Assembly (NCBI GenBank): GCA_027026255.1
Contig: JALVOT010000008.1
Span: 11,619 to 75,618, forward strand
From: a candidate division WOR-3 bacterium
GTDB taxonomy: Bacteria > Hydrothermota > Tepidihabitantia > SM23-42
Direction of reading: 5' to 3'
DNA length: 64,000 bases
Part shown: in pieces, positions 5,079-50,913 of the stretch
Numbering within the stretch: the first letter of the stretch is position 1
Layout of the letters: each line of letters opens with the position of its first letter
Program-made: the position numbers and the translations under genes
Notes under the pieces: model-generated
The model's database searches: none
Told to the model about the DNA's origin: nothing
The model's input: the letters and a program-made list of their open reading frames with translations, nothing else

Positions 5079-6375
5079 TTACATAAAAAAATCTTTTGTT
5101 ACATATTTAAATCAAATAATCAGGTTATTACTGATTGCCGGAAGTAATATCATCATCGCCCGATACCTTGGTCCTTCCGGGAAAGGTATCCTGGCATTAA
5201 TAACAAATTTTTACTCAATAACAGTGATGATTGGTATGTTCGGAATCGATGAGGCGAGTGTCTATTTTATTAGCAGTAAAAAAGCGAAGCACAGTGCATT
5301 ATTTACTAATATTCTGTGTCAGACGGTGATAATTTCTGTTATTGCAACAGTGATTTTTCTGACCAATAGAAGTTGGTTTCTAAGCCGTCCTCTAAAGGGC
5401 ATTACAGAACATTATTATTATATCATGATTTTCTTGATTCCCCTATTTTTTTTGATTCAACATACAAGAACAATACTTCTTGGGCATCGGGCAATTTATA
5501 AATATAATATATATATCGTGCTCCAGATGTTGTTTCTCTTTGTTGGCCAGTTAATTCTTATTCCCCACTTTGGATTGTGGGGCGGGGTTCTTTCTATAAT
5601 AGTTGCTGGAGTTATAAGCTCGGTTTTGGGGATTGTTTTCCTTTTAAAATTTGGGTCTCCTCAGACGAAAATTAATTTTGGTTTATTGAAAAAGTCGTAT
5701 GGTTTTGGCATTAAATCTCAGCTTGGATTGTTCTTCAGTTATATCAATAGAAGGCTGGATATCTTTATTGTTAATTTTTTTTTAAATCCATCCCAGGTCG
5801 GTATTTACTCAATTGCTGTTGCGGTGGCTGAATTACCCTGGTATCTTCCTTCATCCGCCGCCACGGTTCTTTTTCCCTGGGTGGCTGATAAATCAAAAAA
5901 TGAATCTGCGAAATTTACGGCATATGTATTAAGGAACAGTATTTTTATTACCTTCGTAATCGGAGTCGTTCTTGCCCTTTCCGGTAAAATCATTATAACT
6001 ATTCTCTTCGGTAAGGCCTTTGATAAATCAGTGTTATTATTATATATTTTACTACCCGGAATCCTCTGTCTTGGTATTACACGCATTCTTGGGGCGCACT
6101 TTCAGGGTAGCGGAAGACCTGAGTTGGGGACATTGATGGTAGCATTTTCATTTGTAGAAACGGTTGTTCTTGATGTGGTTTTGATTCCTAAGGTCGGCAT
6201 CATAGGCGCCGCTGTGGCATCCACAATTGCGTATGCAACTTCTGCATTAATTGGAATATATATATTTATAAGATTGTGGCCGGTTAATATATTTGACACA
6301 TTGTTTGTTAAGAAAGATGATTTTTTAAAGATGAGAAATTTCTTGAATTTCTTAAAAAGGAGGAATAATGAATAA
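5071..6375 (+). CDS. Wzx-type polysaccharide flippase (MOP superfamily)
   Basis: Polytopic ORF. The track starts at TTG 5041, but ATG 5071 (MTDYIKK...) overlaps the upstream stop (ATGACTGA), so I prefer 5071. Confidence 0.75.
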   Translation: MTDYIKKSFVTYLNQIIRLLLIAGSNIIIARYLGPSGKGILALITNFYSITVMIGMFGIDEASVYFISSKKAKHSALFTNILCQTVIISVIATVIFLTNRSWFLSRPLKGITEHYYYIMIFLIPLFFLIQHTRTILLGHRAIYKYNIYIVLQMLFLFVGQLILIPHFGLWGGVLSIIVAGVISSVLGIVFLLKFGSPQTKINFGLLKKSYGFGIKSQLGLFFSYINRRLDIFIVNFFLNPSQVGIYSIAVAVAELPWYLPSSAATVLFPWVADKSKNESAKFTAYVLRNSIFITFVIGVVLALSGKIIITILFGKAFDKSVLLLYILLPGILCLGITRILGAHFQGSGRPELGTLMVAFSFVETVVLDVVLIPKVGIIGAAVASTIAYATSALIGIYIFIRLWPVNIFDTLFVKKDDFLKMRNFLNFLKRRNNE

Positions 6376-7408
6376 AAAATTACTTCTCGCTGCGCCTATC
6401 GGGGCACCCGGTCCGTTGACTGCATTAAGAAATCATTATAAAATCCTCAAAAACCATTTTGACTGTCAATTTGCTTCACTTGAAGAATTGGTATTCCCGT
6501 TTTGTAATAAACTTAATAAGCATAAAAATTTCTGTGATAGGGCTGCACGAAGATTGAAATGGGTATCGGTTAATAGGCTGATTCCGTTTGGCGAAAATAT
6601 AATTTTTGCCAGTTATGGTAGAATTTACAAAACAATCATTGCGAAACTAAACAAAAAAGGGATTAGACCGTCGTTTATCTGGTGCAGCACCTTGGGACAG
6701 CTGGAGATGACACCCGGGGAAAGGGCTTCTTTTGTGGCTATGATAGAATTATTGAAAAAAGGAAGAATAAAGTATTTGTTGCTCCATCGTCGGTTGTATA
6801 AAACAATTGGAGTATTTTTGAAAGAGGTGGTTTTTTTGCCGCATAGTATTGACCTTGTAGAATTACAGGGCGTAGAAAAGCTTAATTTACCGGGATTAAA
6901 TATTGACCTGTTCTGTCGGCCCAGATACGGAAAAAATATTTTAAATCAATTGCTTGCTTTTGAAATAGCCCGGCTTGATGGAAAATTACATATCAATTTT
7001 GATGTCAATAAATTTAATGGGATAGTGGAACTTATCTCTTCGAAATATATTCAACACCGATGGATTCCGCAGAATAGCTATTTTAGTCTGATTTCAAGTA
7101 TGGACCTTGCCCTCCAGGTAACGATAGGTGAAAGTTTCAATTATGCGGTTTGTGAACATATGGCCCTTGGTGTGCCTGTCTTAACTACCGAAGATATATA
7201 TCTGGTATCCGGGGATAAATATCTGGCGAAATATTTATGTGTTCCTGCTGCGGATACTCCTCCTGTAATTGCTGAGTATATTAGAAAAATCGTAACCGAT
7301 AGAAATTTACACAATGAGCTGGCAAATCGTTGCCGGGAAAGAATTGCCAGAGTCGCTGAAGATAATAATAAAATAGTTATTCAAAAAATCAAGGAACTCT
7401 TTGGTTGA
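6368..7408 (+). CDS. glycosyltransferase (GT1/GT4-like)
   Basis: 346-aa ORF. The C-terminal ESFNYAVCEHMALGVPVLTTED matches the E..G...EAMA.G.PV motif of GT-B enzymes. Confidence 0.6.
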   Translation: MNKKLLLAAPIGAPGPLTALRNHYKILKNHFDCQFASLEELVFPFCNKLNKHKNFCDRAARRLKWVSVNRLIPFGENIIFASYGRIYKTIIAKLNKKGIRPSFIWCSTLGQLEMTPGERASFVAMIELLKKGRIKYLLLHRRLYKTIGVFLKEVVFLPHSIDLVELQGVEKLNLPGLNIDLFCRPRYGKNILNQLLAFEIARLDGKLHINFDVNKFNGIVELISSKYIQHRWIPQNSYFSLISSMDLALQVTIGESFNYAVCEHMALGVPVLTTEDIYLVSGDKYLAKYLCVPAADTPPVIAEYIRKIVTDRNLHNELANRCRERIARVAEDNNKIVIQKIKELFG

Positions 7409-8510
7409 CCTTTTTATATACTTCCAGGGTAGCGAGTGCTGTTTTCTCCCACGAAAAATTCTTTGATATCTCAAACCCCTTTTGTGCAATTTGATGGGCA
7501 TATTGGGGATTTAGCAAAATGCGCTCTAATGCTGATTTCAATTCTGTAGTATTGTTCGGGTTGAAAGTAATTACCCCATTCTTTACAAATGGAGCAACTG
7601 CAATTGAATTTGAAATAATCACGGGAATCTTTGACGCCATCGCTTCTAACACCGGGAGTGAAAAACCCTCATAAAGTGATGGCATCACAAAAACTGAGGC
7701 ATTTGCATATAAATCTGCTAAATTTTCGGTAACATGGCCGAGGAATAGAACCTGTTTACTTAAATTAAATTTTTGAATATATTTCTTAACCGTAATGTAT
7801 GCATTACCTTTTTTGCCGGCGACGACGATTATGTATCTATTTTTTATTTCGCCGCTCAATTGATTATATGCCTGAATTAATGTTTCCAGATTTTTATTCT
7901 TATCAATGACACTCACAAAAAGGATATAAGGTTTGGTTATATTATTGAAAGAATGCTTTTTGTATGAAGGGTTAAACTGATTTAGATTTACACCATTAAG
8001 AACCAAACTTATTTTTTTTGAATTTATGCCCAGTCTGGTAAGTAAGGCTTTTTTTACATTGGGGGAGACAGCGATAATATGGTCAGATTTTTTTGTTTCA
8101 AGTTTTACAATAATTTTACGAGCCAGGGAGCGAAACCAACCGTATTTTTCAGGAAAAGAAAATTCCAATAACTCATCATGGATTGAACAGATGTGTATAG
8201 TATTTTTGAAAATGAGAGGCATTGTGCCCGGTAGGTGGACTATGTCAGGATGAAATTTCCGGGCTAAAAATGGAAAAATGAAGGCATGCCAGATATTTCT
8301 TAATATTCTATTAGAGAACCAATTTATCTTAATTAACTGGAGATTTTTGTTGTTAATATAACCTTTAAAATTTTCCTGCCATTTACCATAAAATATGTAG
8401 TACTGATTGGCGGTGTCAATTTTGGCGAGGGCATAGATTAATTCCAGACAATATCTGTCTGTGCCTTTAATTAAATGGGACCAACTTACTGCATTAATAA
8501 CAATACGCAT
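7389..8510 (-). CDS. GT4-family glycosyltransferase
   Basis: 373-aa ORF with the motif VMPSLYEGFSLPVLEAMASKIPVIISN. Confidence 0.85.
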   Translation of the reverse strand: MRIVINAVSWSHLIKGTDRYCLELIYALAKIDTANQYYIFYGKWQENFKGYINNKNLQLIKINWFSNRILRNIWHAFIFPFLARKFHPDIVHLPGTMPLIFKNTIHICSIHDELLEFSFPEKYGWFRSLARKIIVKLETKKSDHIIAVSPNVKKALLTRLGINSKKISLVLNGVNLNQFNPSYKKHSFNNITKPYILFVSVIDKNKNLETLIQAYNQLSGEIKNRYIIVVAGKKGNAYITVKKYIQKFNLSKQVLFLGHVTENLADLYANASVFVMPSLYEGFSLPVLEAMASKIPVIISNSIAVAPFVKNGVITFNPNNTTELKSALERILLNPQYAHQIAQKGFEISKNFSWEKTALATLEVYKKVNQRVP

Positions 8511-8513
8511 ATA

Positions 8514-9578
8514 TTAAAGAAATTTTTTGATCGCCGCTAATGTATCATCTGCGACATTACGCCAGGTTCTTATTTTTGCAGACCTTAATGCATTATTTTT
8601 TGCAATAGAAATTCTTAGGTTATGGTCGGTTATTAATCGATGAATCGCCTCAGCAAGGGCATCAATATTTTCCGGTTCGTATAAAATTGCGTTAATATTA
8701 TCTTTAAGTGACTCCCTGGTTGCCGGAATTGCTGATGCAATGATAGGCAGGCCAAAGGAAATCGCTTCGAGGAGCACCATACCAAAGGTCTCAGAACGGG
8801 ATGCCGAAATGAAGATATCGGCTTTTCTATAAAAATGAGACAATCTTTCTTTATCTACTTCACCGTGAAAGATAATTTTCCCGGATAAATTCGCTTCATA
8901 AATTAATTTTTGAATACAATGAAAATATTTGGAATTCGAATCATACCTACCAATTACATTTAATGTAAAATCAAGATTCTTTAGTCTGCTTAATGCCTTT
9001 ATTAAAGTGTCCAGCCCTTTCCATGGTTTCACCTGACCAACAAAAAGCAGGTTCTTTGCATTTTCAGCTGAATGCTTTCTGGGTTTACCCCATACCTTTG
9101 GAGCCGGATTTACAATTTTTTGAGTTTTGGAATTTAAATGAAATGGAGAAAAGTATGCCTTTGCTGATACACTGGGAAAAATCAGGAGAGAGGCACCCTG
9201 GAGAATAAGATATTCAATTAAAAACTCTAAATTTCGTTCAATAGACCCCTTTCGAAGATTATAAAATGTCTGAAGGCAATTAATGCCGTATCTATTGCCC
9301 AGCATTCTGCTGATAAAGAGGGGAATAATTAAACGAAAATGCATACCATGATTCACGAAGATAAAAGAATTTTTTCGATACCTTAAAAGAATTTTTACAA
9401 TCTTGAGGATAAAATACAATCTATTTTTTCTTATCCACACAGGAAAATCAGCACAATTTATAACATCCATTTCAATACCCCTGTTTTGCAAGTACCTGAT
9501 TATTTGGGCTAATCGATACAGACCACCGGTATAAGGATGATAAAGATCGCGGTGAATAATTATTAACTTTTTCTTCAA
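8514..9578 (-). CDS. GT4-family glycosyltransferase
   Basis: 354-aa ORF with the motif ISASRSETFGMVLLEAISFGLPIIAS. TTG start with GTGAGG 6 nt upstream. Confidence 0.8.
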   Translation of the reverse strand: MKKKLIIIHRDLYHPYTGGLYRLAQIIRYLQNRGIEMDVINCADFPVWIRKNRLYFILKIVKILLRYRKNSFIFVNHGMHFRLIIPLFISRMLGNRYGINCLQTFYNLRKGSIERNLEFLIEYLILQGASLLIFPSVSAKAYFSPFHLNSKTQKIVNPAPKVWGKPRKHSAENAKNLLFVGQVKPWKGLDTLIKALSRLKNLDFTLNVIGRYDSNSKYFHCIQKLIYEANLSGKIIFHGEVDKERLSHFYRKADIFISASRSETFGMVLLEAISFGLPIIASAIPATRESLKDNINAILYEPENIDALAEAIHRLITDHNLRISIAKNNALRSAKIRTWRNVADDTLAAIKKFL

Positions 9579-21407: not shown

Positions 21408-22541
21408 TTAGGATAAAACCTTAAAATATACTATAAAACCATATATGATTCCTTCGGTTAAAAGAAAGTAAGGGATGGAATATTGGTGGAAACTTAACCA
21501 TAATTTTTTATTTTTTGCTATTCTTAAGGCAATAATATTTGCTAATGAGGAGATTATTAAACCATTTCCACCAACATTTACCCCATATGTTATTACCTGC
21601 CAATTGTGCGTAAATTTCGAGATAAGCACAGTTGCTGGAACATTACTAACTACTTGAGATGTGAATACTGATACCAAAAATACATTATTTGCAGAGTTTA
21701 AATTTAGCGCATTAATAGTTTTTGATACTATTGATGCAGTGGAAATAATATGAAAATCAATGAAAATAATTATAAAAAGTAACAATAATGCCCAATCTAC
21801 TTTCGCCAATACTTTGCTGTTATATATAATATAAATTGTAAAAATAACTGGTAATATCCAGATGGCTAATCTCAACTCTAAAAAGATAATATAAACTAAT
21901 AGCATTGCTGTAGATAAAATTAACAGTGGTTTTTTGAATGCCTTACTGTTACTTATATCTTCTGAAACTTTTATCTTTTTGTCAGAGAAAACAATCCAGG
22001 CAAATATTAAAAGAATTAAAAGAAGAAAAATAACTAATGGGAACATCTTTATGATAAATGTAATAAAAGAGATATTCCATTTGTGCCATAAAAATATATT
22101 TTGTGGGTTGCCAATTGGTGTTAAGGAAGAGCCTATATTAACAGAAATGGTTTCAAAAATTATTAACTTAGAAATGTCATTTTCTATTATGTTTTGAATC
22201 CCGATGGTTAATGGAATAACTACAAAAAGCGTGATGTCATTTGTAAGAAATGTGGACAGTAATGCTGAAAAGATTATTAAAAAAAATGAAAGAGATTTTT
22301 CGGTTCCCATTTTTTTTATTATTTTTTCAGACAGGGTATCAAAAAACTTACTTTCTTTTAGTCCCGTGGTAATTATAAGCAATCCTGTAAGTGCTATTAT
22401 TGTTCTCCAATCAATAAAGTAAGGATAATTGATTATTTGATGATGGTATACAATAGATAAAATAATAAGTAAGATAACGAATATAGATAAAATAAATTCT
22501 TTTTTTACAATCTTAATTATCCCCATTTTATACACAATCAC
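21408..22541 (-). CDS. ArsB/NhaD/CitMHS-superfamily anion or cation permease
   Basis: 377-aa polytopic ORF with the IGNPQNI motif. Confidence 0.7.
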   Translation of the reverse strand: MIVYKMGIIKIVKKEFILSIFVILLIILSIVYHHQIINYPYFIDWRTIIALTGLLIITTGLKESKFFDTLSEKIIKKMGTEKSLSFFLIIFSALLSTFLTNDITLFVVIPLTIGIQNIIENDISKLIIFETISVNIGSSLTPIGNPQNIFLWHKWNISFITFIIKMFPLVIFLLLILLIFAWIVFSDKKIKVSEDISNSKAFKKPLLILSTAMLLVYIIFLELRLAIWILPVIFTIYIIYNSKVLAKVDWALLLLFIIIFIDFHIISTASIVSKTINALNLNSANNVFLVSVFTSQVVSNVPATVLISKFTHNWQVITYGVNVGGNGLIISSLANIIALRIAKNKKLWLSFHQYSIPYFLLTEGIIYGFIVYFKVLS

Positions 22542-23097: not shown

Positions 23098-23406
23098 TCA
23101 ACTTTTCACCACTTGTATACCCATTATCTTAACGCCATCTGTTGTTCTCATCGATAATGTTGTAGGTTCGGTAATTAGACACTGTCCCTCTTTAAGATTC
23201 ACTATTTCTTGATTAGCCCTTACTTCTGCTGTCCCTTTAATAACATAGAAAATAACATAAGAAGTCATTTCGCAAGTTGGCATCTCACCACCGGCCGGAA
23301 GCTCAATAATTCTTAGTTTAAATTCCTTAGCTTTATAGAAAACATTCTTATCCCGTTCCTCATACGGATATACTGCCATTGTTTTGATATCAAAAACTTG
23401 CATCAT
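23098..23406 (-). CDS. cupin-domain protein
   Basis: About 102 aa counted from ATG 23406, which is preceded by AGGAGGTGAAG. Small beta-barrel-like sequence. The track start at 23445 overlaps the upstream gene more extensively. Confidence 0.6.
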   Translation of the reverse strand: MMQVFDIKTMAVYPYEERDKNVFYKAKEFKLRIIELPAGGEMPTCEMTSYVIFYVIKGTAEVRANQEIVNLKEGQCLITEPTTLSMRTTDGVKIMGIQVVKS

Positions 23407-23959
23407 CTTCACCTCCTGAGACTTGTTTTTTACAGCTCCATTCAATTAGTTGTTCTATAGATACTCCCATTATTATAACAAAAACAATTGTTAAAATAAG
23501 TCTTGCTGCCATAAATTTTGGCCCAAGGAATTGAAGTTCCACCATCTCTTGAGGGATTTTTATGCATGCCCAGGCAGAAAGGAAAACAATGATACAGGAT
23601 ATTTTGGCGCCTTTTTTAAGTAAAGTAGAAGCTATAGGAAAAGCCACATATAGAGGGCCTGTAGGCAGTGACCCCAACAATATTCCGAGAAAAACGCTCT
23701 TTATTCCAGCAGCTTTTCCCAGATATTTTACAACCATATTCTTAGGCATAAATACCGCAAAAAGTCCCATCAATACCAGAACAGCAGGGAGTATTGAAAT
23801 CATTTCAATAAAGAATTTCAATGATGTATTAGTTACTGCTTTTTGTTTGTCAGGAAAAATTGAGAGTAAAATTACTGTAATAAATAAAGTGAGTCCAAGA
23901 ATGATTACATCTCGTTTCATTTCCTTTCTTTGAGTTTCTTTTTCTACAGGTTCTTTCAT
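23390..23959 (-). CDS. permease, C-terminal half of a split UPF0718/ArsP-like permease
   Basis: 189-aa polytopic ORF with a 4-nt overlap with the upstream half. Confidence 0.55.
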   Translation of the reverse strand: MKEPVEKETQRKEMKRDVIILGLTLFITVILLSIFPDKQKAVTNTSLKFFIEMISILPAVLVLMGLFAVFMPKNMVVKYLGKAAGIKSVFLGILLGSLPTGPLYVAFPIASTLLKKGAKISCIIVFLSAWACIKIPQEMVELQFLGPKFMAARLILTIVFVIIMGVSIEQLIEWSCKKQVSGGEDDASF

Positions 23960-24438
23960 AGTATCACTCCCATGATGATGCCAATAATAATTGCAATTAC
24001 AAAACTTATTCCATTTCTGAGTAAAGCTATTTTCTTTCCCAATTCTTTTATTTCTAAAGGTAGTGTAACTATACCAATCATAGTTAAGGTAGTAATAAAT
24101 ACTGCAACCGAGGTAACTGATGTCCCGTTTTTGAGGAGAGATGCTGCTAACGGAAAGGAAATTAAAGAAGGGATATGCAAGAATGCTCCCAATGATGCTA
24201 CAATAAGCACTCCTCCAAAACCTGCCTGCTCACCAATGAGTTTAGAAATCTGACCTTGCGGTACGAAACCTAAAAGCAGTCCTATAAAGATTATAATAAT
24301 AAGAACAGTGGGAAAAATACGAAAGAATGACTTTAATGCTCCGGTTAATGCCTGTTTTGTTTTTGTTCGTTCCTTAATAAACGCAAATATTAAACAGCCA
24401 AAAGCAAAGACATTTATAAGTATGGCAGTTGTATTCAT
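23956..24438 (-). CDS. permease, N-terminal half of a split UPF0718/ArsP-like permease
   Basis: 160-aa polytopic ORF. AAGGAGG RBS. Confidence 0.55.
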   Translation of the reverse strand: MNTTAILINVFAFGCLIFAFIKERTKTKQALTGALKSFFRIFPTVLIIIIFIGLLLGFVPQGQISKLIGEQAGFGGVLIVASLGAFLHIPSLISFPLAASLLKNGTSVTSVAVFITTLTMIGIVTLPLEIKELGKKIALLRNGISFVIAIIIGIIMGVIL

Positions 24439-25095: not shown

Positions 25096-25877
25096 AATGA
25101 CCTCATTTTTTCAGGCATTTCGCCTAACGGTTTAGCAAACTTTGGTTGCCACACGAAGTATCCATCTTGATAGATTAATCTTTGATTGCTGTCCGGGGAT
25201 TCTCTGAATCGCAATGTGTCCGGATTACCGTGGACGGAAAAATACTTCATAGCAGATTGCTGTTTTTGGCCCCTGAAATCATCTATCCGACCCCTTTTCA
25301 TTGTTGTGTTCTCTGTTTCAGGGCGCCAGTTATTATTCCATAAGAAATATAAGCAGCCGTCCTCGTCGGTATTGATTTCTCCATCCTAATCAACACAGGC
25401 AAAATATAAAGCACAAAAGATTGAGGATGTAATATCTATCATTTTTGTCCCAACCTCATCATCATAATGTGCCATCAAAGACCACCAATTAGGGTCTTCT
25501 TTCTTTTTTCTTGTTTGAAAAAGCCATTTAATCTTTGAATTTATGTATTTCTTCTGAAATGCCTTAAGGTATTCTATTTCGTCCGAAGTTATATTTAGTG
25601 GATTAATATCGTTATGCTTCAATCCGGTATTTCGTACAATTCTTGGTATTAGTTCCCAACCATAGATATGTTCTCCCCGAAAAAATATTGGTTTTACGCT
25701 TGAGCCTTCATTCATGAAACTTTTAATACCGGAAGTTTTTAATAATACCTCTCCACATGAACTTATATAGCAATTACCATTACACCCTGTCGATAGTTGC
25801 TTATCATCACGGGTCAGTTGCCGCCAAGAAACGCAGCGAATTGGCGGCAACTGACCATATTGTTCAGGTTTTTTCAT
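25089..25877 (-). pseudogene. FRG-domain protein gene interrupted by one in-frame TAG (25386-25388)
   Basis: FFRGEHIYGWELIPRIVR and WWSLMAHY...IDITSSIFCALYFA are FRG-like. The same frame stays open after the TAG for 98 more codons, down to 25092. Confidence 0.6.
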
Positions 25878-26074: not shown

Positions 26075-26599
26075 TTACTCTTTTCTTTTTTTACTCTTCT
26101 CTTGCACAAGTCTTTTGATTTCATCCAGATGCCCAAGTTCGAATTCTTTTTTCGGTTTCGGTATCTGTTCCAGTACGGCATTTATTGCTTCTTCCGCTTG
26201 CTTTGCCGTCCGTGGATTTATCGCTTTCTGCTTAACTAAATCCTGAATGGCCTGTACATAGATGTATCCGCATCTATGGGCGCTTGGATTAAAGAGTTTT
26301 ACACAAGTTGTTTGGTCACAACATGCTTGAACTATAGCTGCATCCGTAAAGTGATTGGCGTGGTAAACAAACCCTGGCTTAACGATCCAGAACGACCATA
26401 CTGCTTTTAGGTAATAACAGCCAGGGGGAACTTCAACTTCAAGGTGACCACATTTGGCAGGTAAAACTACGTACTTCTTACCGCACCACTGGAGTACATT
26501 ACCATCGCAGTCATAGATGGTAACATACCATGTCCTTTTATCAACACTACAGGGATCGTCAATCCCTGAAATCCAGATGTTAAGTTTTGCCATTCCCAT
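26075..26599 (-). CDS. Cys-rich hypothetical protein (12 Cys in the first ~125 aa, Lys/Glu-rich tail)
   Basis: 174-aa ORF with a GGAGG RBS. No recognisable family. Confidence 0.6.
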   Translation of the reverse strand: MGMAKLNIWISGIDDPCSVDKRTWYVTIYDCDGNVLQWCGKKYVVLPAKCGHLEVEVPPGCYYLKAVWSFWIVKPGFVYHANHFTDAAIVQACCDQTTCVKLFNPSAHRCGYIYVQAIQDLVKQKAINPRTAKQAEEAINAVLEQIPKPKKEFELGHLDEIKRLVQEKSKKRKE

Positions 26600-26683
26600 T
26601 TTTTTTTCCTCCTTTTAATTAAATTCCAGGAAGTTCCGGCCACAAGAACTCCCTTCAAAAAAGAACTATATATACAAAAGTTA

Positions 26684-26863
26684 TCAATTAGTACAACAAA
26701 CTATTAGTCCTAAGCAGAATGCTTTAACTCCACGATCTGCTTTTTCGACAGTAAGCTGGGGTAATTCCCTTATCTGTTGAGCTAACGCAGCCTCAATTTG
26801 TGGTGTTGATCTAATTTGTAGCACGTCTTCCAAAGCCACTTTTTTTTCTTCTTTTCCAGGCAT
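26684..26863 (-). CDS. 59-aa peptide with a helical leader-like region and hydrophobic C-terminus AFCLGLIVCCTN (candidate RiPP precursor)
   Basis: ATG 26863 lies 5 nt after AAGGAGGTGA, which overlaps the end of the radical SAM gene. Confidence 0.55.
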   Translation of the reverse strand: MPGKEEKKVALEDVLQIRSTPQIEAALAQQIRELPQLTVEKADRGVKAFCLGLIVCCTN

Positions 26864-26868
26864 TATTA

Positions 26869-28257
26869 TCACCTCCTTTCGTGGCCATTAGATTGAATTT
26901 TTTTTCTGCAGCCGGGCGGTGTTCCAAAAAAGTCATTTTTGCTATAATACGCCCTTAAACGACACATTTTTAAATCGCAACTATTTACAAAAGAACAATT
27001 GCTGCATTCTGAAAGATTACTTAATTCTACCGAACCTCTAAATAATTCCCAGGAATCCAATTCCCAAATTTCTTTAATTTCATTTTCCTTGGTTGAACCC
27101 ATAGCAAAATGATTATCATGAAAGGCATAAACACAGGGGAAAACGATACCATCAGATCTTATTGCAAGTCTTGTAGTTCCAGCAGTGCAAAAAATCCTAC
27201 TATTTTTTAAGGGTTTTAAATCTTCATATTTTGGTTCATATGGATTTAAATAACCGATGTAAATTTTTCCCTCAAAATGATTTTTTAGTTTATCTATGGA
27301 ATTTGAAATGTTATTAATATCAGAATTTTCCAACAAAAATTCTTTATGATTTTTTGCTCTTCCGAGAGCATCCAACACTAAGAAATTTATGGATTCAGCG
27401 CCTATAGAATATGCTAACTCTGCAATTGATTTTAATTGATGAATATTTTTTTTATTAACAGTTGTTGCAATATGGAATTTTGCACCTGCTTTTGATAAGA
27501 GTTCTAAACCATTAATTACCTTGCGGAAACTATCAGGCCCCCTTAACAATTCATGTGTTTCACAATTGGCTCCGTCTAATGAAACTGTCGTTGAGAAATT
27601 AGGCCGTGAAAGAAGTAATGCTAATGATTTATCAATTAGAGTTCCGTTAGTCAGTAATTCTATTCTTATTCTTTTTTGAGCTAAATAATCTATTATTTCT
27701 CCTGAACCGGGATACAGCAACGGTTCACCACCTGAAATTGCTATTCTATATGTTCTTAGTTTTTCAAACTGATCGAATATATTTAGCCATGAAATAAGCT
27801 CAAGTTCGTTATCTAATTTTTTGCCAGCTTTATAAATACAGTGTTTACAATAAAGGTTACAAGCTCTTGTGAAGTGAACTTCAGCCTCATATGGAGTTGA
27901 TGTGACAGGGACGTAGGATTTAATAGAGGTTAATTCAAAATCAGAAATATTTTTTGAGTTTTGGAAATTATCTGTAAGTATCTCAGAAGGATTAAAATGT
28001 TTACTAATAACCTTAATTATATCCTTAACAGTTATTTCTATTCCTCTTTGAGAGCAAAATGAACAAATTTGTTCAAAAGAAAGATAATTATTCTCAAATA
28101 ATTTAAGTATTAAAAATAGTGTTAGACTAATTTTATACTTTTCAGCAGTATCAATATTAAATGCTAAGTAAGGAGTATGGAAATATGGATCATTTCTGAT
28201 AATCCAACGATCAGATAAAGTATATGGTTTATTTGCTGAGAGAGAAAACGATTTCAT
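26869..28257 (-). CDS. radical SAM/SPASM-domain peptide-modifying enzyme with an N-terminal RRE/PqqD-like region
   Basis: CNLYCKHC (Cx3Cx2C), GGEPLL, and a C-terminal Cys cluster (CTAG...FPCVY...CSNCSFVNSCDLKMC) typical of SPASM. Confidence 0.8.
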   Translation of the reverse strand: MKSFSLSANKPYTLSDRWIIRNDPYFHTPYLAFNIDTAEKYKISLTLFLILKLFENNYLSFEQICSFCSQRGIEITVKDIIKVISKHFNPSEILTDNFQNSKNISDFELTSIKSYVPVTSTPYEAEVHFTRACNLYCKHCIYKAGKKLDNELELISWLNIFDQFEKLRTYRIAISGGEPLLYPGSGEIIDYLAQKRIRIELLTNGTLIDKSLALLLSRPNFSTTVSLDGANCETHELLRGPDSFRKVINGLELLSKAGAKFHIATTVNKKNIHQLKSIAELAYSIGAESINFLVLDALGRAKNHKEFLLENSDINNISNSIDKLKNHFEGKIYIGYLNPYEPKYEDLKPLKNSRIFCTAGTTRLAIRSDGIVFPCVYAFHDNHFAMGSTKENEIKEIWELDSWELFRGSVELSNLSECSNCSFVNSCDLKMCRLRAYYSKNDFFGTPPGCRKKIQSNGHERR

Positions 28258-28556
28258 ATATTAATGTTTATAGTATCGATTGGACTAACTGTTTTCCCCG
28301 GACTCTTTCTGCTTATATAGGAATAAAACTTATTTATATTACTGCTTTTATGCTCCATTAGGTTCCATATCTTTCCAGAAATCATTCTTACTTCTTTTAT
28401 CAACCCCTTATCATAAGGAATTTGAATTATAATTTCATCATTTTCCTCAAGCGCAATCTTCACAGCAGTTATTTTGCCTGTTTGTACCGTCTTCACGGCA
28501 GACAGGTCTTCCCTTACCATTTTATAAAACACATTCTGTTTTTTTATTATATTCAT
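28254..28556 (-). CDS. hypothetical 100-aa protein (segments resemble the N- and C-termini of tyrosine recombinases)
   Basis: Carries IQIPYDKGLIKEVRMISGKIWN and a C-terminal SPID. 4-nt ATGA overlap with the radical SAM gene. Confidence 0.45.
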   Translation of the reverse strand: MNIIKKQNVFYKMVREDLSAVKTVQTGKITAVKIALEENDEIIIQIPYDKGLIKEVRMISGKIWNLMEHKSSNINKFYSYISRKSPGKTVSPIDTININI

Positions 28557-28614
28557 ATTCTATTCCTATCCTTTCCTTACAATTTCCAGTTCCAGCACTT
28601 TAATATATGATACT

Positions 28615-28642
28615 ATTATATTCATATACACGAGTCTGTCAA
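28615..28642 (-). promoter_or_regulatory. sigma70-type promoter of the radical SAM operon
   Basis: Minus strand reads TTGACA (28642-28637), 16 nt, TATAAT (28620-28615), followed by a 58-nt leader. Confidence 0.55.
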
Positions 28643-28686: not shown

Positions 28687-30651
28687 TTAATAGACAAAAT
28701 ATATCTGGCCGAATATTCTCCGTCCGGGCATCGGATAGTTTCTATCTTTTATTGAATTGCCGAATTGCGTGGCATATTCTTTATTAAAGAGGTTCTTCAC
28801 GCCTACGGATAATTCCCATACCTTTAAGAATTTTTTTCCTGCGGTGATATCCACAATGTAGTATGGATTCAGGGTCTTCGTATCCATCTTTATTCTGGGA
28901 TAATCTTCATAATTGGGATAGTAATTAACCTGTTCACCCACATACGAACCGATGATGTTGAGATTCCACTGATGCCGGAACTTAAAATATAATTTTGTTG
29001 AAAATTTATATTTCGGAATAAACCCTGCGGTTCTTGTTTTCGTTTCAAACTCAATATGGGATGTATCTGCAAGCCAGTCATAATATGAATAGACCAGTTC
29101 TCTGTTTTCCTGTTGGGCAAGAAGGTATGTTCCTTCTAATGCAACTTTTAAAAACCAGCTGACCCGGGTATTAATCCGGGCTTCAATCCCTTTGATATTA
29201 ACGTAGTCGACATTTTGCGGTTTCCACAGTCCATTATTATCAGGCAGCCAGGCAATCTTATCATTTATATTGCGCATAAATATTGCCAGACTTGTAAAAA
29301 GATTATACCGGGGTGAAATCTCAGCCCTCAGTTCATATGCCTCGCCATATTCAGGTTTGATATCTGGATTTCCACCGGTTGGATAGTAGAGGTCATTGAA
29401 TGTCGGTGCCCGGAATGCCCGGCCTGCTGAACCCTTTAAAAAACACCTTTCGGTCAATTGATAGACAATGCCCAGTTGAGGTGAAATGAAGTTGCCATAA
29501 CCAGAATTCTGATCCAGGCGTAGAGAAGAATGGACCTTTATAAAATCTATCGGTTCAATCCTGGTTTCAATCCAGTATCCGATATTATGATATGCCGCAT
29601 CCCAGACCGATTTTCCAAAAAGGCTCGATTCTGTAATGCTGTTCAGACTGTCGTATCTGAAATCAAATCCGCTGATAACCTTAAACTGATTTAGATTATA
29701 ACCGGTTGAGAAGTTTATGCCTGCGGTTCGAACATCCCATTGATATTCTTCTTCAACCGGAGCGGCCCAGAAGTATTTTGTATGATATTTAATACGATAG
29801 AGATTGCCGTATATTTTCAGGTCAAGGTTGATTCGGCTACCGGGCACAAAGCTGATATCCAGATTGCTCAAGGCTATGCGGTCTCTCTGACGGTCATAAA
29901 GTGAAGTCGATTGGGAATCGCCAAAAACCGGAGGGGGTGTAATACTATCGATATAGGGCATCGGTCCAGGAACACCATGGTCCCTTAAATTAAGGCTGAA
30001 ATCCAGGTTTGTCTTAAACCTCTTTTTATTATAACTTAATCCATTTTTCAGATAGTAACCAGAGAAATCACTGTTTGACCGGATACCCTGGGCCTTAGAT
30101 TTTGTCTGTTCCAAGTAATAACCAAAATTGCCGGCGGGAACAAAAAATTTTAAGAAGTAGTTCTGTTGATTGGGAAAGGCAGTTATTTTTAGCTGAGAGT
30201 TTTTTTGATAATCAAATTCATCAGTGATGATGTTAATCACACCACCTAAGGCATTTGCTCCGTAGAGTGCAGAACAGGGACCTTTGACAATCTCAATCCT
30301 TTTTATGGAGTTGATATCAATCATACTCAAGTCCGCCATTCCAAAGAGCATCGAATTCAGGGGCTGACCATTTAAAAGAACCAATGTGCCATTGGATGAT
30401 ATGCCCCTGATGCATAGACTGCCAACACCACCAGGGGTTCCATAATCCTTTATTTCGACCCCAGCGGCATACTGGAGAATTTCGGTCAAAGAAGCAGGTT
30501 TTATTTTCTCAATTTCATCCTTTGTTATTACCAGGGTCGCAGTAGCGATATCCTGCAGTTTCTCAGGATATCTTGTTGCCGTAACCACAATACCTTCAAC
30601 CTCGTAGATCGGTTGTTGGGTAATGAGTTGAATGGTTAATAATAAAATCAT
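28687..30651 (-). CDS. btuB: TonB-dependent receptor, cobalamin-type (BtuB-like)
   Basis: 654-aa ORF with a plug domain, beta-barrel, and C-terminal aromatic residue. It follows a cobalamin riboswitch. Confidence 0.85.
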   Translation of the reverse strand: MILLLTIQLITQQPIYEVEGIVVTATRYPEKLQDIATATLVITKDEIEKIKPASLTEILQYAAGVEIKDYGTPGGVGSLCIRGISSNGTLVLLNGQPLNSMLFGMADLSMIDINSIKRIEIVKGPCSALYGANALGGVINIITDEFDYQKNSQLKITAFPNQQNYFLKFFVPAGNFGYYLEQTKSKAQGIRSNSDFSGYYLKNGLSYNKKRFKTNLDFSLNLRDHGVPGPMPYIDSITPPPVFGDSQSTSLYDRQRDRIALSNLDISFVPGSRINLDLKIYGNLYRIKYHTKYFWAAPVEEEYQWDVRTAGINFSTGYNLNQFKVISGFDFRYDSLNSITESSLFGKSVWDAAYHNIGYWIETRIEPIDFIKVHSSLRLDQNSGYGNFISPQLGIVYQLTERCFLKGSAGRAFRAPTFNDLYYPTGGNPDIKPEYGEAYELRAEISPRYNLFTSLAIFMRNINDKIAWLPDNNGLWKPQNVDYVNIKGIEARINTRVSWFLKVALEGTYLLAQQENRELVYSYYDWLADTSHIEFETKTRTAGFIPKYKFSTKLYFKFRHQWNLNIIGSYVGEQVNYYPNYEDYPRIKMDTKTLNPYYIVDITAGKKFLKVWELSVGVKNLFNKEYATQFGNSIKDRNYPMPGRRIFGQIYFVY

Positions 30652-30844: not shown

Positions 30845-30872
30845 ATTATATTCAGATAATAATAACTGTCAA
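30845..30872 (-). promoter_or_regulatory. sigma70-type promoter of the riboswitch-btuB unit
   Basis: Minus strand reads TTGACA (30872-30867), 16 nt, TATAAT (30850-30845). Confidence 0.6.
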
Positions 30873-31078: not shown

Positions 31079-31106
31079 TTGACATCTTAAATCAAAAGGA
31101 TATAAT
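31079..31106 (+). promoter_or_regulatory. sigma70-type promoter of the ECF sigma operon
   Basis: TTGACA (31079-31084), 16 nt, TATAAT (31101-31106). Confidence 0.55.
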
Positions 31107-31562: not shown

Positions 31563-32105
31563 TTGCCTGCAGATATCAATGAACTTGTTCGATTATCCAA
31601 AACGGGTGATGAGAAGGCGATTGCCCGGCTCATCACCCTGTATAAGCAGTTGATATTCACCCTTGCATATCGTATGATCCAGGATTATGAACTGAGTCGG
31701 GATATATGCCAGGAGACATTCATTAAGGCATTCAAAAACATTCATAAATTGAAAAATCCGGCATCGATGAAGGCCTGGCTCTGTTCGATAGCGCGCAATA
31801 TAATCTATGATAAAATCAGAGAGAGGAAAAAGCACAATACGGTGAGTCTTGAACAAATTCAAGAACCTCTGGTTTCTGACCAATCACTCCGTATAAGAAA
31901 ACAGATGATAATTCAAAATGCTCTTGCCCGGTTGAATGAACAGGACCGTCTGTTATTGTCTTTATATTATTATCAGGGGATGGATATCAAGGATGTTGCT
32001 GTAATAACAAAAAGGAAACCAGAAAATATTAAGATGGCGTTGAGCCGGGCAAGGGCAAGATTGAGAAGGGAGTTGAAAGGATATGAAGATGAACTTATGC
32101 CCTGA
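31563..32105 (+). CDS. ECF-type RNA polymerase sigma factor (sigma-70 family, regions 2 and 4)
   Basis: 180-aa ORF with DICQETFIKAF and a C-terminal HTH (DIKDVAVITKRKPENIKMALSRAR). Confidence 0.85.
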   Translation: MPADINELVRLSKTGDEKAIARLITLYKQLIFTLAYRMIQDYELSRDICQETFIKAFKNIHKLKNPASMKAWLCSIARNIIYDKIRERKKHNTVSLEQIQEPLVSDQSLRIRKQMIIQNALARLNEQDRLLLSLYYYQGMDIKDVAVITKRKPENIKMALSRARARLRRELKGYEDELMP

Positions 32106-32556
32106 TAAAGAAAGACTTATTGCCTATCGCTCAGGTATTCTGAATCCGGCAGAGCAAAAATTGATTGAAGAACATATTACTCAATGTAAAAAATGCCAGC
32201 GGGAATTGAAGATAGAATTGGAGATTGATAAATGTTTATCAACAGCGTTTGATCCCGGACCCATTGAAGATTCTGTAATCCAGCGATTACGATTGGACCG
32301 AGAAATATCTGCAAGAATCTGGTGGTCATATCCGGTCTGGGTGTTTTTGAATACCTTGGCATTTCTGGCGCTTGGTCTGGGGGTATGGGTGATAATCAAC
32401 CAACCCTATATCATCTCTAAGTTAAATGATTTTGTTAATTTATTACCGAAGAATTCAAACGCTATTATAATGAATGTTATCAGTATTCTATTTTTATTGA
32501 TGAGTTTGGCCTTTTCTTTTCGGAAAAAGTTCCTCAGATATCTTATTGAATTGTAA
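32083..32556 (+). CDS. anti-sigma factor (zf-HC2-like, single TM)
   Basis: H..QCKKC motif and a TM helix. It overlaps the sigma gene end. Confidence 0.65.
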   Translation: MKMNLCPDKERLIAYRSGILNPAEQKLIEEHITQCKKCQRELKIELEIDKCLSTAFDPGPIEDSVIQRLRLDREISARIWWSYPVWVFLNTLAFLALGLGVWVIINQPYIISKLNDFVNLLPKNSNAIIMNVISILFLLMSLAFSFRKKFLRYLIEL

Positions 32557-32907: not shown

Positions 32908-32935
32908 TTGACAGGACAGTATTTATTTTTATAAT
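32908..32935 (+). promoter_or_regulatory. sigma70-type promoter of the BNR/T9SS gene
   Basis: TTGACA (32908-32913), 16 nt, TATAAT (32930-32935), then GAGGAGG. Confidence 0.55.
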
Positions 32936-47088: not shown

Positions 47089-47183
47089 AAATCTTAAAAA
47101 TTATATACCAAATATTTTGATTGTCAAGGCAGGGTTCATTCAGAGCTGAATCTCAAAATAGTATAAAGGATTGAACCCTGAGA

Positions 47184-50884: not shown

Positions 50885-50913
50885 TTGACAAATTAATGAT
50901 ATAGATATATAAT
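50885..50913 (+). promoter_or_regulatory. sigma70-type promoter, leaderless geometry (rfb operon)
   Basis: TTGACA (50885-50890), 17 nt, TATAAT (50908-50913), 5 nt, GTG (50919). Confidence 0.55.

Follow-up and report, generated by a model that had tools for sequence, protein, structure and literature searches.

The minus strand of a 64-kb stretch of a candidate division WOR-3 genome (the 64,000 nt of contig JALVOT010000008.1 analyzed here, hereafter the window) encodes a 462-residue radical S-adenosylmethionine (SAM) enzyme with a C-terminal SPASM domain and, immediately behind it, a 59-residue peptide with a Cys-Cys motif close to its C-terminus. Comparison of this locus with its relatives suggests that the functional unit is a two-gene cassette for a ribosomally synthesized peptide with post-translational modification (RiPP), which consists of the enzyme gene (28257-26869) and the precursor gene (26863-26684) and ends at a conserved hairpin; we put the probability of this reading at about 0.8. 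That the two products are related as RiPP maturase and precursor appears highly probable, and for thioether formation as the chemistry of the enzyme we would give even odds. Judged from its sequence relationships, the pair represents a genuine family, uncharacterized and unnamed, of a kind of system that is itself well known. The locus was first picked out in a reading of the DNA letters alone (the sequence-only reading), which proposed an uncharacterized RiPP-type pair of a radical SAM/SPASM enzyme with a RiPP recognition element (RRE)-like domain and a leader-core peptide, a proposal that the comparisons bear out. The features of the cassette are the following.

26869..28257, minus strand: 462-residue radical SAM/SPASM enzyme, predicted peptide maturase with an RRE-like N-terminal domain (Pfam, alignment, structure model)
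27973..28230, minus strand: RRE-like winged-helix domain, residues ~10-95 of the enzyme (modeled secondary structure, SuiB alignment)
27838..27861, minus strand: CX3CX2C cluster motif CNLYCKHC (C133, C137, C140), invariant in 27 family members
26908..27189, minus strand: SPASM domain with seven conserved Cys (alignment column counts; Pfam SPASM 5e-11)
26869..26878, minus strand: Shine-Dalgarno sequence AAGGAGGTGA of the peptide gene, overlapping the enzyme stop codon
26684..26863, minus strand: 59-residue putative precursor peptide, whose adjacency to the enzyme is kept across loci
26693..26698, minus strand: codons of Cys56-Cys57, presumed modification site or donor, invariant in the peptide alignment
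26628..26654, minus strand: predicted hairpin with a 10-bp stem and the 7-nt loop UGUGGCC, 3' of the peptide gene

A conserved pairing of enzyme and peptide

The peptide (MPGKEEKK...VKAFCLGLIVCCTN) comprises a conserved leader (..LQIRSTPQIEAALAQQIRELPQL..) and a C-terminal core (..AFCLGLIVCCTN) without Glu or Tyr; it contains 3 Cys, 2 of them conserved, and ends in CCTN. Its gene lies behind the perfect Shine-Dalgarno sequence that the sequence-only reading had pointed out: AAGGAGGTGA occupies 26878-26869, its TGA is the stop codon of the enzyme gene, and the ATG of the peptide begins 5 nt further on. Two copies of AAGGAGGTGA are present in the window versus 0.12 expected by chance, and in the other loci in which this junction was read (L-numbers, such as L001 or L222, are labels of the compared loci) the peptide gene is likewise preceded by (A)AGGAGGTGAT, with the variant GGGGGTGAT in L090.

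In all readable loci except one contig of 1.85 kb, the enzyme is accompanied by an adjacent peptide whose core reads [F/L/M]-G-[L/I/V]-x-x-C-C, and this pairing spans at least five phyla and two domains, the bacteria and the archaea. The locus thus displays the general hallmark of RiPP systems, a leader-core precursor gene that co-occurs with the enzyme across genomes, and the peptide is kept next to the enzyme in homologous loci, a check that had been proposed together with the original observation. Among the individual lineages: 1) In Hadarchaeota (L001, L003, L083-L086), whose enzymes are 59-60% identical to that of the window, the gene directly 3' of the enzyme encodes ...LGEVLQIRTTPQIEAALAEEIRTIPNLVIEKMERGIRASSLGLVVCCCG. 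2) In Aminicenantes (L081) the downstream peptide ends in ...VKVTPQIEAAIAEVAKTIPKLTAESSKAVVAGVLGVAVCCNG. 3) In Bacillota (L002 and L222, the latter from the cultured Clostridium sp. BNL1100) it ends in ...HVASAFGLIACCNSL. 4) On metagenome contigs without assignment (L082, L088, L090, L224-L226) the peptide again lies directly downstream of the enzyme, with the ends GLGLIVCCNA, FGLIVCCNGASAMVRAA, FGLAQDCCN, MGLVVCCIL and FGLTACCNFRE. The core stands at or near the C-terminus in most of these window-type peptides, two of which have 8-10 extra residues.

A profile search with nine of the peptides recovered 14 clusters only from a collection of 5.8 billion proteins, and none of the 14 bears a name from any source. 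The window peptide itself has no NCBIfam match at E <= 1, in agreement with the earlier impression that its core belongs to no named family. G52, C56 and C57 are invariant in the peptide alignment, and the C56-C57 pair is present in 13/13 retrieved family peptides. Hence, the Cys-containing tail seen by the sequence-only reading stands as part of a leader-core peptide, and only C56-C57 of its three Cys are invariant, the third, C49, being found in few members. Of the codons compared between the peptide gene of the window and its homologue in L082, 16 are identical, 25 differ synonymously and 19 non-synonymously, an excess of synonymous differences that shows purifying selection on the peptide.

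The radical SAM/SPASM enzyme

About 30 full-length relatives of the enzyme, 29-61% identical to it, were found in the same collection of 5.8 billion proteins. An alignment of 27 family members showed conservation along the whole length, including the N-terminal 110 residues, the CX3CX2C motif, GGEPL and the SPASM cysteines. C133-X3-C137-X2-C140 is invariant, and the C-terminal region follows the pattern C357-X12-G370-X4-C375, C418-X2-C421-X5-C427-X4-C432, C450. Exactly seven SPASM cysteines are thus conserved (C357, C375, C418, C421, C427, C432 and C450); an eighth is not, and D369, close to these cysteines, is conserved in 93% of the sequences. In Pfam the enzyme matches Radical_SAM (PF04055; 8e-25, 88 bits against a cut-off of 29.5) and SPASM (PF13186; 5e-11, 43 bits against 21.5), so that both the CNLYCKHC motif of the sequence-only reading and its SPASM domain at the C-terminus are upheld. 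Motif, Pfam score and fold match place it in the radical SAM superfamily, and the presence of CX9-15GX4C ... CX2CX5CX3-4C ... C places it in the SPASM subfamily.

An AlphaFold2 model of the enzyme (mean confidence, pLDDT, 89) predicts that residues 12-93 form four short strands (12-42) followed by three main helices (45-93) and one helix of 4 residues, with a pLDDT of ~90. In a Foldseek search with this model the streptide maturase SuiB was the best match (E 1e-21, TM-score 0.69-0.73, ~470 columns, over the full length including the RRE), and SkfB, CteB (5wgg/5why, E 1e-17), PqqE, the anaerobic sulfatase-maturating enzyme (anSME) and TigE ranked after it. When a profile of the family was compared with the sequences of solved structures, SkfB came first (5.6e-38) and anSME, SuiB (9e-29), PqqE and CteB also matched; these alignments start inside the N-terminal domain, at residue 39 for SuiB and 34 for CteB. 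The N-terminal domain alone, in a sequence search against PDB, gave weak winged-helix matches.

The enzyme matches 82 NCBIfam models and reaches the cut-off of none. In bits against cut-off, the top matches are ScmE (140/400), NirJ2 (138/500), MftC (132/265) and AhbD (131/500), with WgkB also matching; the maturases of thioether peptides follow with StsB (105/625), SkfB (TIGR04403, 94/300), PapB (83/340) and AlbA (74/850), and PqqE (TIGR02109) and anSME (TIGR03942) score 88.5/381 and 85.5/349. Six other members of the family likewise remain below all maturase cut-offs of NCBIfam. Membership in a non-RiPP subfamily, against which the sequence-only reading had advised a check with hidden Markov models, finds no support here: with the anSME, PqqE, MftC and NirJ/Ahb models alike, the scores stay far short of the respective cut-offs.

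Export-type relatives in Bacteroidota

More distant enzymes, 29-35% identical, occur in Bacteroidota, namely in Prevotellamassilia (L004), Labilibaculum (L005/L089), Ancylomarina (L006), L091 and Dysgonomonas termitidis (L223); L006, L089 and L091 were read in part. Here the precursors, whose leaders are of the double-glycine (GG) type, are encoded upstream of the enzyme. D. termitidis encodes three precursor paralogues, with LKGG directly before KADLAQESVAPGTAGLNVCCNF in the first and with GIAGLNVCCNL and DGISACCNPT in the others; other precursors of this branch end in GVLNCCNTNTYPPGSPDKK, GWNTCCNTGTTP.. and GIANCCQSAWPF.., and the core endings across these loci include AGLNVCCNF, GVLNCCNT, GWNTCCNT and GIANCCQS. 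The C-C pair is present in most of these GG-leader precursors. An outer-membrane barrel gene of the OMP_b-brl_3 family is found 3' of the enzyme, L005 and L223 have a confirmed histidine kinase and response regulator in the vicinity, and GG leaders are accompanied by a Peptidase_C39-ABC exporter (PCAT) in L004, L005 and L223. The leader of the window peptide lacks a GG motif, and the neighbors scanned there include no PCAT. The Bacteroidota arrangement, judged by its gene content, is the standard layout of a gene cluster for an exported, leader-cleaved RiPP. Since the enzyme and the G-x-x-x-C-C core are common to both branches, the Cys-Cys peptide is the putative substrate.

Three of the Bacteroidota loci encode, in addition, a second GG-leader peptide that is free of Cys and conserved across three genera (L005 5338-5499, L006 5349-5480 and L223 4796-4918), with the ends ...KGGEDRDYYTVIIDGKEVRIYV, ...KGGEGRDYVIVIIDGEEVRLYV and ...KGGGQWVKLENGEYVWVDN.

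The hairpin after the peptide gene

A hairpin lies directly 3' of the peptide stop codon in every cassette. The sequence-only reading had described a bulged hairpin behind the peptide gene of the window; the hairpin (26654-26628) is real and its place correct, and its 10-bp stem requires no bulge. The 95-nt intergenic stretch as a whole folds no better than shuffled sequences (z = -0.9). In the clade closest to the window (window, L082, L090, L224 and L225) the loop NNYGGYC is kept and the stems differ. In an alignment of these five loci, with each sequence anchored at the hairpin predicted for it (an anchoring that tilts the count towards pairing), 97.5% of the cells are paired and 6 of the 8 pairs show compensatory change; this level of pairing was reached by 1 of 500 shuffles, and slid controls remained far lower. 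A mixed alignment of bacterial and archaeal post-peptide hairpins gave a poor consensus, and at the equivalent place the relatives in Bacillota, Aminicenantes and Hadarchaeota carry ordinary terminators, a hairpin plus a T-run. The hairpins of the window and of L090 have no U-run, and neither hairpin nor leader regions match any Rfam family. Most simply, the hairpin would mark the 3' end of the cassette transcript; alternatively, it could serve in processing or stability, or as the site at which a mobile cassette recombines.

Transcription unit and outer reading frames

Two further reading frames and a promoter frame the cassette, and consensus promoters recur through the window.

28615..28642, minus strand: sigma-70-type promoter TTGACA-N16-TATAAT, a 12/12 match, heading the transcription unit
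28254..28556, minus strand: 100-residue open reading frame (ORF), tyrosine recombinase/integrase remnant, at the 5' edge of the cassette
26075..26599, minus strand: 174-residue Cys/His-rich ORF of an independent orphan family
2332-2359, 28615-28642, 30845-30872, 31079-31106, 32908-32935, 47100-47127 and 50885-50913: perfect sigma-70 promoters in the window

The consensus promoter reported at 28642-28615 is indeed there, as are the four ORFs of 100, 462, 59 and 174 residues on the minus strand. Perfect TTGACA-N16-18-TATAAT sites number 7 in the 64-kb window versus 0.1 expected and those checked (2359, 30872 and 31079) lie just upstream of gene starts, so that such promoters are meaningful in this genome, which seems to use the textbook sigma-70 consensus unusually often. 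The stop codon of the 100-residue ORF and the start of the enzyme gene overlap as ATGA. In the 84-nt gap before the 174-residue gene we found no promoter-like site and, as the hairpin in this gap has no U-run, the 174-residue gene is probably co-transcribed with the cassette in the window. The four genes described by the sequence-only reading as tightly linked are, hence, physically close; they do not form a functional unit, as the outer two are missing from related enzyme loci.

A search of 1.84 billion representative sequences yielded 13 weak homologues (E 3e-7 to 1e-3) of the 100-residue ORF. Aligned, these homologues show an integrase N-terminal motif (..KVIIRIPY.QELIKKIK.ISGRRWN..) and a C-terminal tyrosine-recombinase motif (..LLGH.SSKTTEIYTHVS..SPLD, in short HxSSxxTxxIYTHVS..SPLD), and 5 of the 13 match Pfam Phage_integrase (best 2.6e-20). 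The ORF keeps degenerate forms of both motifs with the catalytic core deleted, that is, the N-terminal part of an integrase, possibly with an HTH_17-like stretch ahead of it, joined to the last ~35 residues. Its GC content is 31.7% versus a window mean of 38.5%, and it was not found in the 14 other enzyme loci compared. By these motifs, it is a tyrosine-recombinase remnant, a mobile-element scar rather than a biosynthetic gene. Short fragments resembling it occur in other metagenomes.

The 174-residue protein contains 9 Cys, and not the 12 first counted. It belongs to a family of more than 330 homologues with 64-80% identity in Chloroflexota, an alphaproteobacterium, Kapaibacteria, Bacteroidota and archaea, whose invariant residues include C17, C31, C39, C50, H52, PPG58-60, NHFTD82-86, C94, C99 and HRC108-110; judged from this alignment, the family is highly conserved despite its patchy distribution. 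It has no sequence match in Pfam, NCBIfam or among solved structures, and its AlphaFold2 model (pLDDT 90.6), a beta-sandwich followed by three helices, gave generic beta-sandwich fold matches only. No member was found in the 14 other enzyme loci compared or in 5 more that were inspected, and elsewhere the homologues sit in unrelated neighborhoods without conserved neighbors. On this comparative evidence the ORF lies outside the conserved cassette. One homologue (L163, 5001-5624) lies between a SelD/AIRS-like gene and a gene for a CxxCxxCC protein, near genes for ATP sulfurylase and CysS; further loci are L167-L171 and L172, with two copies in L171. A link of the family to radical SAM enzymes through L171 was considered and rejected, the enzyme there showing no more than a generic similarity (29% identity over 143 residues).

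Origin of the cassette and its surroundings

The cassette was probably acquired horizontally as a small mobile module, given the integrase remnant at its 5' edge, its low GC content and its closest relatives in Hadarchaeota. The enzyme gene and the recombinase remnant have a GC content of 31-32% versus 38.5 +/- 4.2% for the window, and the closest enzymes, with 59-61% identity, include several from Hadarchaeota. The DnaE of the window is 69-74% identical to those of many candidate division WOR-3 metagenome-assembled genomes (MAGs) and 87% identical to that of one MAG, and the window also encodes a protein sorted by the type IX secretion system (T9SS) and LptF/G, fitting a Gram-negative bacterium of the Fibrobacteres-Chlorobi-Bacteroidetes (FCB) group. 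A genome scan with an alignment of the 12 closest enzyme sequences gave, in other WOR-3 genomes, only distant radical SAM matches (L016, L018). We found no convincing direct or inverted repeats flanking and delimiting the cassette, and comparison by eye of the region upstream of the 174-residue homologue in L163 with the cassette borders revealed no homology.

Upstream of the cassette lies a gene for a TonB-dependent receptor (28687-30651, minus strand; domains Plug and TonB_dep_Rec), which is a separate transcription unit, as it has its own perfect promoter (30872-30845). It was rejected as a part of the system because it has this promoter and because clustering at 1e-6 did not group it with the OMP_b-brl_3 barrels that follow the enzyme in Bacteroidota; its adjacency to the cassette is judged coincidental, a link to uptake being conceivable. 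Beyond it lies an extracytoplasmic function (ECF) sigma/anti-sigma pair (31563-32556, plus strand). On the other side, an ORF with an FRG domain (25386-25877) has its own 11/12 promoter at 25905-25876 and contains in its 5' part a perfect 16-bp inverted repeat (25812-25827/25841-25856) with a 13-nt spacer. Further on, two overlapping ORFs (23390-23959 and 23956-24438, minus strand; 189 and 160 residues) both match one and the same N-terminal part (~10-145 of 294) of the Pfam model ArsP_1, a predicted permease, and are two paralogous half-size genes or a disrupted duplicate; a gene for a CitMHS/ArsB-type transporter (21408-22541) is nearby. In Clostridium sp. BNL1100 (L222, CP003259), the Cys-Cys cassette has beside it, at 6350-9167 on the minus strand, a second radical SAM gene (457 residues), accompanied by genes for a 37-residue Cys-rich peptide (..DNCFLIDSIFKCIFCDGGSGDWEQ) and a 401-residue protein, possibly a separate RiPP locus.

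Predicted chemistry and alternative explanations

In the proposed mechanism the RRE-like domain would bind the conserved leader (..TPQIEAALA..IR.LP..), and the radical SAM cluster would cleave SAM to yield a 5'-deoxyadenosyl radical that would abstract a hydrogen atom in the core. C56 and/or C57 would then be joined to a carbon a few residues upstream in [F/L/M]-G-[L/I/V]-x-x to give one or more small thioether rings, with the substrate thiol held on an open-site auxiliary cluster of the seven-Cys SPASM domain, as in CteB and SkfB. The argument for thioether formation draws on the invariant Cys, on SkfB as the best match among the sequences of solved structures and on the seven-Cys SPASM domain. 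In CteB and SkfB an auxiliary cluster keeps an open coordination site, to which a substrate thiol can bind; SuiB, PqqE and anSME, by contrast, have fully ligated auxiliary clusters (PMC8326336). Seven SPASM cysteines are also present in QhpD, CteB and Tte1186, as stated in a survey of Bacteroidales (PMC10352776).

Several points weigh against this picture. The type of bond is inferred throughout, and SuiB, the best structural match, makes a C-C bond and not a thioether. The seven-Cys argument is suggestive only, as a ligand other than Cys could complete the cluster, D369 lying nearby; PqqE completes the ligation of its cluster with an Asp. In the most distant relative, L091 (...GGFLSNCDCTKDQAQL), C-D-C replaces C-C. 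The Pfam PqqD domain is matched at sub-threshold level in 3 of 20 family members (best 6e-4), so that the N-terminal PqqD/RRE domain proposed by the sequence-only reading is supported mainly in its fold, by the model and by the SuiB and CteB alignments, and weakly in sequence; the domain may act as the RRE of an RRE-dependent maturase. Further, the window-type cassettes (window, Hadarchaeota, Aminicenantes and Bacillota loci) have no adjacent gene for a protease, an exporter or immunity, and the leader of the window-type peptide may never be removed.

A rather less probable but still tenable explanation retains the same RiPP pair and replaces thioether formation by another reaction, be it a C-C or C-O cross-link at another place in the core, an epimerization or a conversion of Cys (for example to formylglycine or to dehydro or decarboxylated species); the role of the Cys-Cys pair would then lie in binding a metal, in a disulfide or in recognition. 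The C-C cyclase SuiB as top structural match, the undiscriminating mix of NCBIfam matches (ScmE, NirJ2, MftC, AhbD, WgkB, StsB, SkfB and PqqE, at 88-140 bits) and the many reaction types of radical SAM/SPASM enzymes (PMC10114670; PMC8326336) speak for it, but the only invariant residues of the core are Gly and the two Cys, with no conserved aromatic residue, Lys, Glu or Tyr of the sort found in known C-C and C-O cross-links, the seven-Cys SPASM domain resembles that of thioether formers, and anSME-type recognition motifs are absent, the anSME model scoring 85 against its cut-off of 349. It is doubtful, though conceivable, that the enzyme performs an as yet undescribed radical SAM/SPASM reaction on the two adjacent Cys at or near the peptide C-terminus, such as closure of a very small sulfur-containing ring between the Cys-Cys pair and the region of the invariant Gly, or an oxidation that rearranges the two neighboring thiols, and its product would define a new RiPP class of archaea and bacteria; the hairpin with the NNYGGYC loop and the integrase remnant would then mark a mobile two-gene module. 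That the product of the window-type cassette is a cofactor derived from the peptide inside the cell, or a factor bound to the cell, comparable to pyrroloquinoline quinone (PQQ) or mycofactocin, rather than a secreted bioactive peptide, seems unlikely to us. Such a role would suit the missing protease, exporter and immunity genes, the position of the core at or near the C-terminus, as in MftA and PqqA, and the place of MftC among the better NCBIfam matches (132 bits). Yet MftC and PqqE scores are far below the cut-offs of 265 and 381, no mftB/D/E/F or pqqB/C/D/F genes are nearby, distant relatives with the same core motif lie in export-type biosynthetic gene clusters with PCAT transporters, and the rare, patchy distribution (~30 enzyme and 14 peptide clusters in 5.8 billion proteins) fits an accessory role and not one in core metabolism.

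Two explanations for which we see very little room concern the extent and the state of the cassette. Were all four genes one system, the 174-residue protein would be a carrier, an immunity protein or a second substrate and the 100-residue ORF an accessory factor; the shared strand, the short gaps and the likely co-transcription across the 84-nt gap, without a consensus promoter and behind a hairpin lacking a U-run, would accord with this. The four-gene operon as one system is rejected on locus comparison, which places neither outer ORF in the 14 other enzyme loci and the >330-member 174-residue family in neighborhoods without such an enzyme (the L171 enzyme being a generic match), and by the identity of the 100-residue ORF as an integrase fragment; we consider it very improbable. 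Slimmer still is the chance that an earlier transfer left the cassette behind as an inactive relic, in spite of the decayed integrase that adjoins it, its atypical GC content and its being the only copy seen in WOR-3. Both ORFs are intact, with all 10 cluster-binding Cys and GGEPL present, the Shine-Dalgarno sequence and the promoter are both perfect, and the peptide gene shows more synonymous than non-synonymous changes. We thus continue to favor the two-gene cassette of maturase and precursor.

Relation to known systems

RRE-bearing radical SAM/SPASM enzymes are a productive source of new peptide chemistry, and newly characterized families have tended to reveal new cross-links. The family described here has a compact and easily testable signature, a peptide of 50-70 residues with G-x-x-x-C-C at or near the C-terminus, and it comes in two forms, the minimal two-gene cassette and the full export-type cluster. 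Its cultured hosts, Clostridium sp. BNL1100, Dysgonomonas termitidis, Labilibaculum euxinus and Ancylomarina sp. DW003, make it experimentally accessible, and the ~60% identity between the Hadarchaeota and WOR-3 enzymes points to an inter-domain transfer of a RiPP module. Six core and leader strings did not occur in 8.3 million searchable papers from the open-access literature and bioRxiv, subscription journals lying outside the scope of the search, and topic searches of these two sources found nothing specific on the CC motif, BNL1100 or Hadesarchaea.

Several known systems were excluded on their own features: 1) The curated maturase models for sactipeptides and ranthipeptides (AlbA, SkfB, StsB and PapB) do not accept the enzyme as a member. 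2) Mycofactocin is not indicated, the TIGR03962 score being 132 against 265, the peptide ending in CCTN where MftA ends in GVY, and mftB/D/E/F being absent from the neighborhood. 3) PQQ biosynthesis is not indicated either, with TIGR02109 at 88.5 against 381 and a core without the Glu or Tyr of the E-X3-Y of PqqA. 4) anSME differs in its eight Cys, where the family has seven, and in model score (TIGR03942, 85.5 against 349), and the window enzyme has an RRE-like domain and an adjacent peptide.

The closest comparisons are with four kinds of system. Like SCIFF (six Cys in forty-five) and its maturase in the ranthipeptide cassettes CteA-CteB and Tte1186a-Tte1186, the window locus is a minimal cassette of enzyme and peptide without a dedicated protease or exporter, and the enzyme shares with CteB the layout of RRE, radical SAM and seven-Cys SPASM domains, a Cys-containing core as partner and a Foldseek match of E 1e-17. 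Unlike the SCIFF precursors of ~45 residues with six conserved Cys, the peptides of the window family have 2-3 Cys and a G-x-x-x-C-C core; the gene order in the window is enzyme then peptide, and the hosts of the family include archaea and Bacteroidota. SuiB of the streptide system is the best structural match over the full length, including the RRE, with a solved-structure profile match of 9e-29, yet SuiB is a KxxxW Lys-Trp cyclase and the core of the window family has no conserved Lys or Trp. The auxiliary clusters of SuiB are fully ligated (PMC8326336), whereas the window family conserves seven SPASM Cys only, and the 25 best NCBIfam matches of the window enzyme do not include the KxxxW maturase model, which scores 69 against a cut-off of 500 with L004. 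SkfB, RRE-bearing and thioether-forming, is the best sequence match among solved structures (5.6e-38), but it has a twitch domain with one auxiliary cluster and not a full SPASM domain, its model (TIGR04403) scores 94 against 300, and SkfA is unrelated to the window peptide. The Bacteroidota members L004, L005 and L223 resemble in architecture the Bacteroidales clusters whose only maturase is a radical SAM enzyme and which have GG leaders, PCAT, outer-membrane proteins (OMPs) and a histidine kinase with a response regulator, as described in a bioinformatic survey that infers thioether formation from a 7-8-Cys SPASM domain and reports no product (PMC10352776); the G-x-x-x-C-C core is not described in the passages of the survey drawn on here (PMC10352776), and the window cassette differs from such clusters in having no GG motif, PCAT or OMP barrel. 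Thus, on the strength of these comparisons, the pair resembles the SCIFF/CteB, SkfB and SuiB systems, yet is a member of none. The finding is solid yet incremental, one more unnamed family of a known kind.

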